A DNA stretch of 18,780 bases from a virus. Position numbers and translations under genes: made by a program. The DNA is taken from the UHGV virus genome UHGV-1706803; one strand, written 5' to 3'. The notes below the pieces were generated by a model. That model did not search any database. It was not told the DNA's origin and saw nothing but the letters and a program-made list of their open reading frames with translations. The first letter of the stretch is position 1. Each line of letters begins with the position of its first letter. This document shows positions 12,790 through 18,780 of this stretch, in pieces.

Positions 12790-14786
12790 TGGCTAAAGCA
12801 TGGAAAGATGTTATCGCCTCCCCACAGTATCAGGCGTTAGCACCAGAACAAAAAGCGCAGGCTCAGGAGCAATACTTCAATGAAGTCGTGGCCCCGCAAG
12901 CCGGAGAAAATGCAGAGCAGGCTAAGCAAGCTTTCTATGCTGCCTATCCATTGCCATCTGTGCAGCCAGTGGAGACACAACAACCAGTAGCACAGCAACA
13001 ACCACAGCAAAGTGGATTTATGTCTGATCTTGGTGAAGCAGTAAAAGAGACTGGTCGTGGACTGGTGCAGGCTGGCGTGAACGTGGCAAACATACCTGCA
13101 TCAGTTGCCGATGCTGTAACAAGCGCGGCGGCTTGGGCTGGCGGTAAACTCGGCATCGGCGATGGTACATATCAACCAGCACCACGAGTAACAACGCAGG
13201 GATTAGAGCAGGACTTTGGCCTTCAGCAAGGTGCGCTGACTCCACAAACGACAGAGGGAAGGGTATTTGCTGAAGCATTGCCTTACCTCACTCCTGCTGG
13301 CGTTGAGAGAGCGGCGGTACAGGCACCAACACTTGCTGGTCGAATTGCTCAGGGGGCAACTCGCCTTCTAGCAGAAAACGCAGTTGGATCACTTGCTGCA
13401 AATAGTGCGAAAGATGATGCGGAAGCACTCGCCACCGATTTAGGCGTTGGTGTACTTGCTGGCGGTGCTATTAACGCTGCCGGGCGTGGATTAGGTGCTG
13501 CTTATCGTGGCGTTCGTGGTGCTATTGCGCCAGAAGCGCAGCAGGCTATCAGATTTGCAGAGCGTGAAGGTGTTCCTCTGCACACCACAGACCTGTTACA
13601 ACCCACTTCCCGCGTCGGAAAAATGGCGCAAACGACAGCAGAAAATATCCCCCTGGCTGGCACAAGCGGAATGAGAGCAACGCAACAGGAAGCGAGAAGC
13701 CAGTTGGTGCAGAGATTTGCTGATAAATTCGGTGAGTATGATCCAGCGGTTGTTATTGACAGCCTTAAAGCGAAAACATCAGGAATTCGTCGCGCTGCAG
13801 GAAATCGACTGGAGCAGGTTCAGAATGCTATGGCGGGAATAAACATTCAGCCTGCAAGAGCAATTCAGCAGATTGATACAGAAATATCTAACCTGCAGAA
13901 GCTTGGTAAGGTTGCTGATAACGAGACTATTTCAAAACTTCAGTCCTATCGTGATGAGCTTGTTCGCAATGCTGGTCCTGATGGTCCGGTCAATCTGGAT
14001 TTGAAGCAATTAAGCGATCTGCGCAGCCAGTTCAGAATGGACGTGAAGGGTGAGCGACCAGTGTTACCAAACCGTTCCGATGCTGCCATTCAGCGAGTTT
14101 ACAAGGCGATGACCGACGATATCAATGGTGCCATTGGTCAGAATCTTGGCAATGATACTCTTCGTAAATATCAGCAGGCCAATGCCGTCTACGCTGACGA
14201 AGCGGCGAAACTAAAGAATACCAGGCTGAAGAATGTTCTCATGAAAGGCGACCTGACGCCGGAAGTTGTCAACAACATGCTATTCAGCAAGAACAAATCG
14301 GAAATTAAGACTCTGTATAACTCAGTTGGTCGTGTTGGCAGGGCGCAAATGCGCAATGGCATCATTGGAAAGGCGATGGAGAAATCAGGTGGTTCCCCTG
14401 ACCAGTTCCTTCGGCAGCTTAATATCCTGCAAAACCAGACTGGCATCACATTTAAAGGTCAGGAAGCCGCTTATCTGAAAGGATTGAAAAACTACCTGCA
14501 ATCCACGCAGCAGGCTGCAAAAGCGGCAGTAACAACACCAACAGGGCAGCAAACCATCCCGTTCATTATCGGGTATGGGACGGCAATGAACCCGGCGACA
14601 ACTGGCGCAGCGGTAAGCTACGGACTTCTTACTCGCGCCTATGAGAGCGAGCCATTCAGAAATGCAATGCTCCGAATGGCAAACACCCCACGCGGATCAA
14701 CAGCGTTTGAGAAAGCCATGCAGCAGGCGCAAAAGGCCATTAACGCCCTGACTCAAGGTGCCAAGTCTGATGCGTTGTCAGAATAG
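12789..14786 (+). CDS. 16: Ejection protein gp16-like, 665 aa
   Basis: Position; start overlaps the gp20 stop (TAATG). Longer than P22 gp16 (about 609 aa as recalled), with a Q-rich N-terminal segment. Confidence 0.85.
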   Translation: MAKAWKDVIASPQYQALAPEQKAQAQEQYFNEVVAPQAGENAEQAKQAFYAAYPLPSVQPVETQQPVAQQQPQQSGFMSDLGEAVKETGRGLVQAGVNVANIPASVADAVTSAAAWAGGKLGIGDGTYQPAPRVTTQGLEQDFGLQQGALTPQTTEGRVFAEALPYLTPAGVERAAVQAPTLAGRIAQGATRLLAENAVGSLAANSAKDDAEALATDLGVGVLAGGAINAAGRGLGAAYRGVRGAIAPEAQQAIRFAEREGVPLHTTDLLQPTSRVGKMAQTTAENIPLAGTSGMRATQQEARSQLVQRFADKFGEYDPAVVIDSLKAKTSGIRRAAGNRLEQVQNAMAGINIQPARAIQQIDTEISNLQKLGKVADNETISKLQSYRDELVRNAGPDGPVNLDLKQLSDLRSQFRMDVKGERPVLPNRSDAAIQRVYKAMTDDINGAIGQNLGNDTLRKYQQANAVYADEAAKLKNTRLKNVLMKGDLTPEVVNNMLFSKNKSEIKTLYNSVGRVGRAQMRNGIIGKAMEKSGGSPDQFLRQLNILQNQTGITFKGQEAAYLKGLKNYLQSTQQAAKAAVTTPTGQQTIPFIIGYGTAMNPATTGAAVSYGLLTRAYESEPFRNAMLRMANTPRGSTAFEKAMQQAQKAINALTQGAKSDALSE

Positions 14787-14875
14787 CTTCGCAAACACCA
14801 GGAACGTGCAAAAACCAAATATGTAGAACGCAATATTCAGCATATCTCTTTGCATAAATCCTCCGTAACTGATAG

Positions 14876-15136
14876 TTAGCTGCTGTCTTTTTTATATAGC
14901 TCTTTGAGCGTATCAAAGACAATTTTCTTAACCATATCAGATTGTTGTTCTGCCATACGCTCTGCATCGTCAATGTAAACTGATGCAGAGCTTTGTTTAG
15001 CCAATTATTCTTCAATCGCTGCAATTATCTCTGAGTTCAGAGACCTGTTATTCATCTTCGCACGCTGTTTAATTTTCGCGTGGAGTTCATGCGGAAGTCT
15101 TAAGTGAAACTGCGCCTCGTCGTATTTGCTGTACAT
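14876..15136 (-). pseudogene. mnt: Mnt-like ribbon-helix-helix repressor gene interrupted by an in-frame TAA (43-codon N-terminal RHH, then stop, then 42 in-frame codons matching the Mnt C-terminal domain)
   Basis: Minus-strand translation from ATG at 15136: MYSKYDEAQFHLRLPHELHAKIKQRAKMNNRSLNSEIIAAIEE, then TAA (15005-15007), then LAKQSSASVYIDDAERMAEQQSDMVKKIVFDTLKELYKKDSS and a final stop at 14876-14878. The N-terminus carries the Arc/Mnt signature (QF.LR.P ... NGRS.NSE) and the C-terminus closely resembles P22 Mnt (...AERLADEQSELVKKMVFDTLKDLYKKTT, recalled). GAGG lies 8 nt upstream of the ATG. Confidence 0.75.
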
Positions 15137-15209
15137 CCTTGATGCCTCACCAGTTGGGTGGAATGGCATCGTAACCTACTGGATAAATACTCAATAGTAC
15201 CATTTCGGT

Positions 15210-15232
15210 ATGCAATCACATCATGGTTGCAT
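15210..15232. promoter_or_regulatory. Candidate operator: inverted repeat ATGCAA-N11-TTGCAT in the mnt-tailspike intergenic region
   Basis: 6-bp perfect inverted arms read from the sequence, about 26 bp upstream of the tailspike start and inside the 121-bp divergent region. Assignment as an Mnt operator is inference only. Confidence 0.25.
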
Positions 15233-15257
15233 CATATCATTCGTCTGGAGCAATGAA

Positions 15258-17120
15258 ATGTCAGATATCACCGCAAATGTTGTGGTAAGCATGCCTTCGC
15301 AACTCTTCACTATGGCTCGTTCTTTTAAAGCCGTAGCCAATGGCAAAATTTATATCGGTAAAATTGACACTGACCCGGTAAATCCTGAAAACCAGATTCA
15401 GGTTTATGTAGAGAACGAAGACGGCTCTCACGTTCCTGTATCGCAACCAATCATCATTAACGCTGCTGGATATCCGGTATATAACGGACAGATTGCCAAG
15501 TTCGTAACTGTACAGGGCCATTCTATGGCTGTTTATGATGCGTATGGTGCACAGCAGTTTTATTTTCCTAATGTGCTGAAGTATGACCCAGATCAACTCG
15601 AACAGCGACTTTCGTCAAATACTGGCGCATCTTTGATAGGAACCGAATCAGGAAAAACAGTCCAGGAAGAGATAGATAATATCAAGAATGAGGGTTTATT
15701 TACCGAATTTGATAATTTTTCTGACGCAAAGGCGGCGGAGATACAAAACAGAACAATTAGTATAAAATTCAAGTATGGGACAATTAATTATATTAGAAAT
15801 AATACTACAGGGACGGCATCAAGCGGAGACGCTTATGAATTCTTTGATGCCAGTGGTAACGGTTATATCATAGACGAAAAGCAACTAACGAAAAACACAT
15901 CTGGATTGATAAGTCACACGGAGATTTGGGCAGGAGAGGATCTTGATCCAACATATCTTAATAAGGCAAAAGACCTTGGTATAAGTACTTTTGTTGCGTA
16001 TACGTGGAAAGGTAATGCGTACTCATATCATGAGCACTTCCTTGATTTATGTCAGTTATACGGCATTGACGTTATTTTGCAGGCGGTTCCTAATCAACAA
16101 TACACGACAGATCTTGATGCGGATTTTTCATGGCTATCTTCGCTATTTACCCACCCGGCAGTTATTGGTCTATATCTGCTAGATGAACCTGATTTAACAC
16201 TCTACCCGTTAACCCGTCAGGGACAGATCATAGACAAGGCACGCACAATTTCGACATTGCCCCTTTATGCTGCAACTAATGCAGAAGCCAATGGAGAGGC
16301 ATTGCCTCTTCATATGAATTTTGATTACATATTTGCGTCGAACTATGGTCACTTTATCGGTGGTATTGGTATACGAAGATATTCTGCAACAACATGGGCC
16401 TCATTTGAAGAGGAGGGCTTAAGGAAGGGGCGGGTTATTCCACTTTTAACTGCATACTGGTATGAGAACGAAACTCCAACATTAAATACGGCACAGATCA
16501 GAGACGTAAACGATTATTTATCCAGGTCATATAGCAGGCTTGGCATGTGGCAGTTTTGGGGTAATAGAAGTGTAGAAGATGGATATCACTATATTGAAAA
16601 TGATGCTCAGATTTACGATTTGGTTAAAAGCTCTATCGCGTTACGGAAAGGTTTGGTGAAAAAGCCGTCCTTAGTAAGGACTTTTTTTAGAGCCGCATCA
16701 TTACCAGCAAATTGCTACAAGTATCTAACCAAACCAGCGTATCCAGCTAACATCCCTTGGTTAGACCCCTCATCCGCATCAACATGGAATGAGGCGGCGG
16801 TTCTGCGCATCAAGGCTGGAGAGAGATTTGTTGTAAACTTTGGCTCTCCAGTTAAATTAGAGTCAGTAGTTATGACGTTAAAGGACAATAACGGATTGTC
16901 TAATACTGCAACGTTAGCTCTCATCTATAACCCTCTTGTTAGTGGGGGCCAGCAGCATGCAACAACAAAAACCTTAACTGGCGGCGGGGCGCTTGAGTGG
17001 ATTTTCCCTGGAGATGGAACCCCTTCGCACTTGGTCACTACCATTGGGATAAAATGCCTTCGTAGCACAGGAACAGACTACCTCATTGTTGAGCGACTGG
17101 GCTTTGCAATTACGGGCTAA
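15258..17120 (+). CDS. 9: Tailspike protein: P22 gp9-like N-terminal head-binding domain fused to a divergent receptor-binding / putative glycanase domain, 620 aa
   Basis: ATG at 15258 with GGAG 7 nt upstream. The N-terminal 115 aa or so ([59 protein letters not shown]...NVLKYDPDQ) are the conserved P22-family head-binding domain. The remainder is AT-rich and unlike the P22 beta-helix; it includes an LLDEPD motif and alternating hydrophobic strand/helix patterns suggestive of a TIM-barrel hydrolase. Confidence 0.85.
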
Positions 17121-17132
17121 GTTAATGTATAT

Positions 17133-17150
17133 GCGGAAATGGATTTCCGC
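17133..17150 (+). terminator. Stem-loop immediately downstream of the tailspike (GCGGAAA-TGGA-TTTCCGC); possible terminator or binding site
   Basis: 7-8 bp perfect inverted repeat 13 nt after the tailspike stop. No clear U-tract follows, so terminator function is uncertain. Confidence 0.35.
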
Positions 17151-17158
17151 ACAAACGT

Positions 17159-17187
17159 TTGATAACAGCTCTCTTTATGGTTAACAT
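17159..17187 (+). promoter_or_regulatory. Candidate sigma70 promoter for the acyltransferase gene (TTGATA-N17-TAACAT)
   Basis: -35 and -10 like hexamers with 17-nt spacing, read from the sequence, about 35 nt upstream of the ATG at 17222. Confidence 0.3.
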
Positions 17188-17221
17188 TGGTGACATTACT
17201 AATTAATGTTAAATTATATAC

Positions 17222-18262
17222 ATGAAAAACAGAAACATACAGATGCTGAGAGGGGTTTCTATAATCCTCGTCCTCATTGCTCATGCAGATACAGTGTATT
17301 GGGAAGAATTGAAAAGTATAAAAAAATATATAGACCCAACCATTGGTGTGGATTTGTTTTTTATAATTTCTGGTTATCTAATGGGGGCAACCTTCATCAG
17401 AAAGGTATTATTTGACATTAACCTTAAACACACCATTTCATTTTATATCAAAAGGCTAAACAGGCTTTTCGTTCCGTGCCTATTCTGGTCTTTCATTGTA
17501 TTTGCTCTATTTGACTACTGGCACCTTGCCGGTTTTATAAAAACGCAAGAACAGGCTTTTAAGATATTTATATCTTCAGCGACATTTACTGGTAATATAT
17601 ATAATAGCATCAAGCCTAGTGGCTTCGGGTACTTCTGGTCATTAGGTGTTGAGTTCCAGTTTTATCTAATACTTCCGCTTATTCTATTAATATGCAAAGA
17701 CATGAAGTCATTAATTATCCTGCTTGTCATAATGCTTGGCTTCTACACCTGTGTTTTGAGTTTATTCCCTGAGTCATGGCAATACAGAGCAAATGCACTT
17801 TATATCGGACTTTTGATTTGGTGCGTTACTCAGAGTGAAGGCTATCACGAAATCAAGAAATCTATAAATAATAACGGATGTGTATATATTTGTTTTATCG
17901 TCGGCGCACTCATTCTTGCTGCCTTATGCTTATCCCCTGCATTATATAAAGTGCACGGAGTTAGCTTTACGGCTATATCTATTTTATTGGGATTGGCCTT
18001 CTTTATTTGTGTATGCATGGACAAACCAATAGCTGCATTTATATCAAAACCAATTGAGTTTATTGGTGATATATCTTTTTCCTTATACCTGTGCAACATT
18101 CCTGTTTATATTTTTGTGTCGAGAGAAATGTTTACGCGCGGAATGGGAAAGCCGGAAACTATGATTGTTTCTGTCGTATTAAGTATTGCGGTTGCAACTG
18201 CAAGCCGTTACACATTAGAAAAAATAGATTTTATAAAGTTAAATAAAAATCTAGTTAGGTGA
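17222..18262 (+). CDS. Integral-membrane acyltransferase family 3 protein, probable O-antigen O-acetyltransferase (Oac/OafA-like lysogenic conversion gene), 346 aa
   Basis: N-terminal MLRGVSIILVLIAHA and GVDLFFIISGYLMG motifs are characteristic of the acyltransferase_3 family; multiple hydrophobic helices; AT-rich composition; location downstream of the tailspike, as for oac in Sf6. Confidence 0.85.
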   Translation: MKNRNIQMLRGVSIILVLIAHADTVYWEELKSIKKYIDPTIGVDLFFIISGYLMGATFIRKVLFDINLKHTISFYIKRLNRLFVPCLFWSFIVFALFDYWHLAGFIKTQEQAFKIFISSATFTGNIYNSIKPSGFGYFWSLGVEFQFYLILPLILLICKDMKSLIILLVIMLGFYTCVLSLFPESWQYRANALYIGLLIWCVTQSEGYHEIKKSINNNGCVYICFIVGALILAALCLSPALYKVHGVSFTAISILLGLAFFICVCMDKPIAAFISKPIEFIGDISFSLYLCNIPVYIFVSREMFTRGMGKPETMIVSVVLSIAVATASRYTLEKIDFIKLNKNLVR

Positions 18263-18671: not shown

Positions 18672-18780
18672 CTAAAATCACAAATCATGAAACCCTGGTT
18701 CATGGCGGTTCTCAGGGGTGTTGCGCGTAATCGTGAAACAAAAAGGTAGATTGTTGCTTACCGTCATTCATCATTAGGTT

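Follow-up and report, generated by a model that had tools for sequence, protein, structure and literature searches.

The stretch of DNA analyzed here (the window, 18,780 nt in full, UHGV virus genome UHGV-1706803) covers the late region of an E. coli prophage of the P22-like (Lederbergvirus) type. Its best phage matches are IME10 and other P22-like phages of E. coli, at ∼95% identity, and long ORFs, labeled with Pfam, run uninterrupted through this 18.8-kb late region from the terminase genes to the homolog of gene 16. The gp16 homolog ends at 14786 and the tailspike gene begins at 15258, with mnt between them, which is the location typical of Mnt-type genes. The tailspike gene (gene 9 homolog, 620 aa, 15258..17120, plus strand) is the divergent neighbor of mnt; its Pfam Head_binding match was obtained on the identical gene in four contigs (L089–L092) and its N-terminus aligns with the head-binding domains of relatives. 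Downstream from the tailspike gene, an ORF for an acyltransferase (17222–18262, plus strand) lies on the late-operon strand, unlike gtr in P22. The segment past the tailspike stop (17133–17221) contains a 7-bp hairpin (GCGGAAA tgga TTTCCGC) without a T-run, and two promoter-like sites (TTGATA-17-TAACAT and GTGACA-16-AATTAT) are found ahead of the acyltransferase gene.

The junction between prophage and host is near 18755. There, the related contig L089 diverges into an integrase gene, whereas the window and L090 continue into host DNA (junction region at ∼18739–18780 of the window, L089:1-2414, and L090:1-715, with the host side next to a Peptidase_S11 gene). The end of the window matches 5419 of 5426 complete E. 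coli genomes. In L089, the acyltransferase gene is joined to the integrase gene, which is the gene order of the excised or virion form. With the virion order in L089 and the integrated order in the window and L090, the phage carrying the mutant allele described below therefore lysogenizes and is also found unintegrated.

On the minus strand, positions 14876–15136 translate into MYSKYDEAQFHLRLPHELHAKIKQRAKMNNRSLNSEIIAAIEE, a stop, LAKQSSASVYIDDAERMAEQQSDMVKKIVFDTLKELYKKDSS, and a second stop, i.e., 43 codons, TAA, 42 codons, and TAA. Codons 1–43 (15008..15136) correspond to the ribbon-helix-helix DNA-binding domain (Pfam Arc) and end inside helix B. Codon 44 (15005..15007) is a premature ochre TAA, where relatives have a TCA serine codon, and the next base is T (UAAU). 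Codons 45–86 (14879..15004) continue in frame past the stop with a linker and the Mnt C-terminal tetramerization coiled coil, up to the original TAA (14876..14878), an end point shared with the intact relatives. The N-terminal half matches Pfam Arc (PF03869, E = 2.1e-12, above the family cut-off) over profile positions 3–40 of 50 before the stop, and the match extends to position 46 when serine is restored. The C-terminal half matches Pfam Repressor_Mnt (PF11423, E = 7.4e-15). Both halves fall in a single PHROG family, phrog_795 (profile positions 1–53 and 56–97). With X at the stop, the sequence retrieves from the PDB the Mnt(1-76) structure 1mnt (E = 4.4e-19) and the Mnt tetramerization domain 1qey (E = 1.6e-8, with 19 of 29 residues identical). 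In an ungapped alignment of 80 residues, the Ser-restored protein and P22 Mnt share 49% identity. Arc residues 8–49 align as well with the Ser-restored N-terminal domain, and Arc residues 8–43 with the truncated 43-aa product. By these sequence comparisons, Mnt homology is confirmed for both halves, far above the chance level. The two domains, which in the Mnt family share one frame and one uninterrupted ORF, are thus still encoded in the same frame in the window DNA, with the C-terminal domain after the stop, but the single ORF over both is interrupted at codon 44. The first-pass annotation, made from the letters of the sequence, had described precisely this arrangement of 43 codons, a TAA, and 42 in-frame Mnt-like codons; the translation and the Pfam, PHROG, and PDB matches bear it out, as does the alignment with P22 mnt that it had proposed as a check, and the possibility it had raised that the downstream codons might lack similarity to Mnt does not hold.

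That annotation had also mentioned a spurious out-of-frame ORF over the region. Such an ORF exists (94 aa, 14740–15024, minus strand), and it has no family match in Pfam and PHROG searches. Gene callers place the start of the N-terminal half at an upstream ATG (15169), which gives a product of 54 aa. In distant relatives, this ATG is not conserved as a start (L162 and L206 have it in another frame, and in ST160 an in-frame stop comes after it), and it sits within the −10 hexamer aligned with that of P22 Pmnt; for both reasons the start at 15136, with its 43-aa product, is preferred. In phrog_795 and in the RefSeq phage records NC_002371 (P22 mnt), NC_027398 (Sf101 gp14), and NC_011976, the Mnt homologs are named "partition protein ATPase," a misleading name for a ribbon-helix-helix repressor of 83–97 aa.

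The intergenic control region between mnt and the tailspike gene has 121 nt (15137..15257) and was aligned with P22 Pmnt/O_mnt, ST160, and VSe13. Going upstream from the mnt ATG at 15136, one finds a Shine–Dalgarno GAGG (15145–15148, 8 nt before the ATG), a −10-like TACGAT (15168–15173) aligned with the P22 Pmnt −10 (TATCAT), and, after a 15-nt spacer, a −35-like TTGAGT (15189–15194) aligned with the Pmnt −35. Across relatives, the −10 hexamer is TACGAT, TATGAT, or TATCAT. These Pmnt-like sites are below the threshold of the consensus promoter scan and are, therefore, assigned by homology only. On the plus strand of the intergenic region, the scan gave no site above threshold; on the minus strand, its sole site (CTGACA-17-AATGAT, 15264–15236) is not conserved in VSe13 and was rejected. 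The P22 Pant homolog appears, by eye, degenerate in the window. The E. coli copies are 2 nt shorter than VSe13 at window positions 15174–15188 (L004 was compared), with a spacer of 15 instead of 17 nt, a deletion that should weaken both the Pmnt and the Pant homologs. The invariant 45-nt leader (15137–15175) can form a hairpin (z = −2.5); we do not count it as an established RNA element and credit its conservation to the −10, the leader, and the Shine–Dalgarno.

At the position of P22 O_mnt, the minus strand contains ATACCGAAATGGTAC (15197..15211), with the dyad TACC-N5-GGTA, a candidate Mnt operator judging from its placement in the alignment. It has the same symmetry axis as GGTCCACCGTGGACC of P22 and AGACCACGGTGGTCT of ST160, it is unique within the window, and its dyad is partial (4/7 positions symmetric). 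In VSe13, the arms are retained and the spacer is changed, and the site is conserved along with Mnt N-terminal domains of the window type. A near-palindrome, ATGCAATCA-N5-TGGTTGCAT (15210–15232), with perfect arms in IME10 and one mismatch in the window, lies on the tailspike side of the candidate operator, before the ribosome-binding site of that gene. As an operator, this near-palindrome was rejected because VSe13, with the same recognition strand in its Mnt, does not conserve it.

In 76 of the 86 related loci, 87–101 nt separate the mnt leader from the start of the tailspike gene; the other 10 have an inserted HNH gene. The HNH endonuclease insert in the mnt/tailspike gap is ∼0.5–0.6 kb long (L006:4409-4867, L024, L028, L030, L031, L069, L072, L085, L095, and L216) and resembles a mobile homing-type insertion into an intergenic control region. 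On the other side of mnt, downstream from it, a GGAGG ribosome-binding site precedes a 25-codon hydrophobic ORF, MQRDMLNIAFYIFGFCTFLVFAKLF (14778..14855, minus strand), which shares 9 nt with the end of gene 16, convergent to it. About 59 related loci keep this ORF open and unchanged in length; its substitutions are mostly conservative, and Pfam and PHROG searches gave no family match for it. It is probably cotranscribed with mnt; it may be a small membrane peptide, and the nonsense mutation may have a polar effect on it.

The "ant moron" of Villafane et al. (PMC2629481) is the variable interval that separates gene 16 from the tailspike gene 9, and the window has its mnt-only form. In tblastn searches with P22 Ant and Arc, neither arc nor ant was found in the window or in close relatives, and the divergent arc-ant operon under a Pant-overlapping operator, a feature of the P22 Mnt type, is absent from the window. 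The window mnt is thus in the orphan configuration, without arc or ant. Ant morons with an orphan mnt have been described for ST64T, ST104, and L (PMC2629481, PMC8022706).

In the alignment, codon 44 is TCA or TCG (Ser) in IME10, Sf101, ECO26.1, and VSe13, versus TAA in the window. Since every related copy from the allele-blind scans has serine at codon 44, the stop results from one C>A substitution in the coding strand (G>T at 15006 on the plus strand). The comparison set, assembled blind to the allele, is made up of 233 complete E. coli records and ∼160 contigs from phages and metagenomes, all with serine (TCA, sometimes TCG). Codon-44 stops occur in 0/82 allele-blind loci of IMG/VR, in 0/41 metagenome contigs (39 TCA and 2 TCG), in 0/233 complete E. 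coli records (in a 61-mer test, none at ≥99% identity), and in 0/157 loci of a full-context pattern scan, a tally that leaves out the loci recovered via the truncated product. In RefSeq, E. coli prophages encode the intact 86-aa protein (WP_000287053.1, annotated as Arc family DNA-binding protein), which is recorded on at least 1000 contigs. The ancestral gene was, as had been proposed, intact and of about 86 aa: it has 86 codons, with serine at codon 44 in the four phages above and in all allele-blind loci.

In a 390-nt comparison, only two changes, the nonsense change and one synonymous change, separate the window haplotype from the closest intact one, and the nonsense mutation is, therefore, recent. 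No further lesions have accumulated in mnt of the window lineage. The window mnt thus carries a disabling change relative to intact orthologs under purifying selection. The codon-44 TAA allele is rare in the population, yet it is carried by a circulating prophage lineage.

Carriers were looked up by exact match to the truncated product, taken as the 54 aa that the gene callers predict, and the contigs come from ENA and Logan assemblies. The look-up returned 21 contigs, an upper bound for the carriers because one of them (L095) has the intact TCA allele, with the gene cut off where the contig ends, and was rejected as a false positive. Among the contigs of the window lineage, L090 matches the window at 100% identity across 9.8 kb, and L089, L091, L092, L096, L097, and L098 match it at 99.8–99.98%. 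They represent at least five distinct SNP profiles (L089 and L091 have one in common and are probably from the same sample), and all have the TAA and the unaltered downstream frame. The sources are ERZ27229851 and ERZ28600570 in ENA and SRR27186959, SRR27389505, ERR4405757, and ERR5982208 in Logan. As a single-base difference from all relatives in curated collections, the TAA could be suspected of being a sequencing or assembly error in an intact gene, the objection foreseen in the first-pass annotation. The identical allele is, however, present across projects and assemblers, in several independent assemblies that differ at other SNP positions; the stop is, therefore, not a sequencing error, and an error of either kind is extremely improbable. 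A scan of GTDB genomes with a 19-nt pattern of the stop allele gave six exact matches, which are due to chance; they are in unrelated MAGs, and, these MAGs being without any BLAST similarity to the window, we dropped contamination as a reading of the matches.

Outside the window lineage, codon 44 is TAA in L094 (95% identical, with an L051-like haplotype) and TAG in L093 (about 93% identical), the latter on a background that has TCG in L139. The stops in L094 and L093 are probably independent events. With the window lineage, codon-44 stops thus occur on at least three haplotype backgrounds, and the downstream frame is open in all the carriers. These facts agree with a truncation that is functional and possibly selected, in which the 43-aa fragment would be a stand-alone Arc-like dimeric repressor, with its behavior altered and not abolished, and in which the C-terminal coiled-coil peptide might be made separately by reinitiation at a TTG codon immediately 3′ of the TAA. 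P22 Arc, with 53 aa, is indeed a stand-alone ribbon-helix-helix repressor. On the other hand, the loci with codon-44 stops were recovered by a look-up of the exact truncated product, which returns stops at codon 44 only, so the recurrence is not evidence for selection. The allele-blind samples have no codon-44 stop and instead show disruptions elsewhere (a codon-32 stop in L044, L115, and L160, frameshifts, and replaced C-termini), disrupted copies making up ∼3%–6% of the mnt copies. Further, mnt offers 41 possible single-base nonsense changes and the intact allele is on at least 1000 contigs, so that a few repeat hits per site are expected. The truncated product also loses Pfam Arc profile positions 41–46, including the residue aligned with Arc Phe45; there is no Shine–Dalgarno ahead of the TTG; and the C-terminal domain is under purifying selection within the fused protein (pN/pS 0.23). 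A functional truncation is, on balance, unlikely.

It is less likely still that the codon-44 stop is a recurrent, selected change by which the tetrameric gene-9-adjacent Mnt is converted into an Arc-like module or abolished. If it were selected, the change would alter a function of the orphan Mnt unrelated to ant, for example the blocking of transcription into the tailspike gene in lysogens or, alternatively, trans-immunity against the antirepressors of superinfecting phages.

Some features of the disrupted copies may be recorded here. The codon-32 stop in L044, L115, and L160 is a TCG>TAG change at Ser32, with additional decay in L160. Further disruptions of the same mnt type, with L144 and L143 as the loci, are a frameshift near the C-terminus and replaced C-termini. 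All the nonsense alleles seen, at codons 32 and 44, are C>A changes within serine codons of the form TCR, and none is a transition from CAA or CAG to a stop; the numbers are too small to interpret.

The 42 downstream codons are intact and in frame, and the allele persists in a lineage that has gained a few SNPs elsewhere. Both observations would be accounted for if a full-length repressor were still made, through an ochre suppressor tRNA of the host or through readthrough of the stop codon. The intact downstream frame is, however, explained by how recent the mutation is. The context of the stop is UAAU, which is the most efficient termination signal in E. coli (Poole/Tate). Scans for tRNA genes found none in the window or in six related contigs. 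In programmed recoding sites, the stop is conserved and its context leaky; codon 44 of the window does not have this combination, and its stop is present in no allele-blind relative. Suppression or readthrough is, accordingly, very doubtful. In this analysis, we found no evidence of recoding or of selection at codon 44.

Among the intact relatives (34 haplotypes), pN/pS is 0.15 over the whole of mnt and 0.056 in the N-terminal domain. By the usual test, orphan mnt is under purifying selection and functional in relatives of the E. coli clade, and its function is, therefore, probably independent of a linked antirepressor. A 21-nt motif upstream of mnt goes together with the window-type N-terminal domain, whichever of several C-terminal types follows. 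In L004 and L152–L216, compared with window positions 15008–14879, hardly any variation occurs in the N-terminal domain or in the upstream motif, and there are at least five unrelated-looking versions of the C-terminal domain (ending in KELYKKDSS, TMYSNNKKET, ADILRKEKTRS, ERLSEHYRKK, and TAMYSEKNKP) and a mosaic joint within mnt near codons 45–70. In two loci, L191 and L216, the gene-9-adjacent mnt is accompanied, on its other side, by a separate complete Mnt-like/Arc-like/Ant-like module, an arrangement from which we infer that the role of the gene-9-adjacent mnt is probably not tied to a linked ant. This second module (L191:2447-4916 and L216:5154-7789) lies between gene 16 and the gene-9-adjacent mnt, is convergent with the latter, and consists of a Mnt-like gene (99–106 aa) divergent from an Arc-like gene (57–63 aa), followed by two Ant-like genes of ∼240 aa; such ant morons have two Mnt-like repressors.

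The position of the stop corresponds to Ala41 in mature P22 Mnt and to Ser44 in Arc. It falls within helix B of the ribbon-helix-helix fold and not cleanly between the domains. By the alignments, it removes the last turn of helix B, including the Leu aligned with Arc Phe45, a core residue. The whole C-terminal coiled coil is lost as well from the truncated product. [quoted passage not shown]

The most likely reading, in which we have considerable confidence, is that of a recent, tolerated mnt allele that is null or strongly hypomorphic. The change of Ser44 from TCA to TAA is a natural nonsense mutation in the orphan mnt of a P22-like E. coli prophage, and its product is a 43-residue fragment lacking the last turn of helix B and the tetramerization coiled coil. 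Such a fragment is expected to lack stability or to bind DNA very weakly at best, which would make the allele null or a strong hypomorph; the fragment might keep some dimerization and DNA binding. The allele would be tolerated because the phage has no cis-linked antirepressor to derepress; the mutation is recent, and the carrier phage still circulates. Both the loss of function and its tolerance through the lack of ant are inferred here. P22 with mnt-ant deleted is viable and lysogenizes (PMC11016777). In the downstream half, there has been too little time yet for relaxed constraint to show. Of the outcomes put forward at the first pass, a truncated DNA-binding domain or a pseudogene, both stand as the two live readings.

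The codon-44 stop allele is, thus, something ordinary, most probably a loss of function in an accessory gene that is known, within a genome arrangement that is known as well, and alleles of this kind are already on record. Its significance is small beyond correct annotation: the locus should be labeled as an mnt-family gene with a premature stop (pseudogene or truncated allele) and not as two short ORFs or as a 94-aa ORF. Natural null alleles in an otherwise intact, circulating phage are, nevertheless, ready-made material for finding the function of orphan Mnt.

The closest model is P22 Mnt (immI; PDB 1MNT, 1QEY), with which the window mnt shares an N-terminal ribbon-helix-helix and a C-terminal tetramerization coiled coil, the location between gene 16 and gene 9, and the aligned positions of the leader, the Shine–Dalgarno, the −10, and the candidate operator dyad. 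The differences from P22 are the stop within the ORF at codon 44, the absence of a divergent arc-ant operon, and the degenerate state of the Pant homolog. At the operator position, the dyad is TACC-N5-GGTA in the window versus GGTCCAC-C-GTGGACC in P22. The residues His6, Asn8, and Arg10 of P22 Mnt, which contact the DNA, are Gln, His, and Arg at the aligned positions of the window. With P22 Arc (53 aa), the resemblance is one of size, the 43-aa product being similar in length and aligned to Arc residues 8–43; the window product, however, stops before the residue aligned with Phe45, with helix B incomplete, and comes from the truncation of a fused gene, whereas Arc is encoded by an independent gene. 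The orphan mnt genes of ST64T, ST104, L, SE1/ST160, Sf101, and IME10 have the same organization as the window, with mnt and one small ORF in the interval between gene 16 and the tailspike gene and mnt transcribed divergently from gene 9 (PMC2629481, PMC8022706). The Mnt proteins of Sf101 and IME10 are 97%–99% identical to the restored window protein; the gene is intact in all these phages, whereas the window has the ochre codon. The authors of the phage L work left undecided whether an orphan mnt has a function or is just a remnant; in the E. coli clade analyzed here, orphan mnt is under purifying selection.
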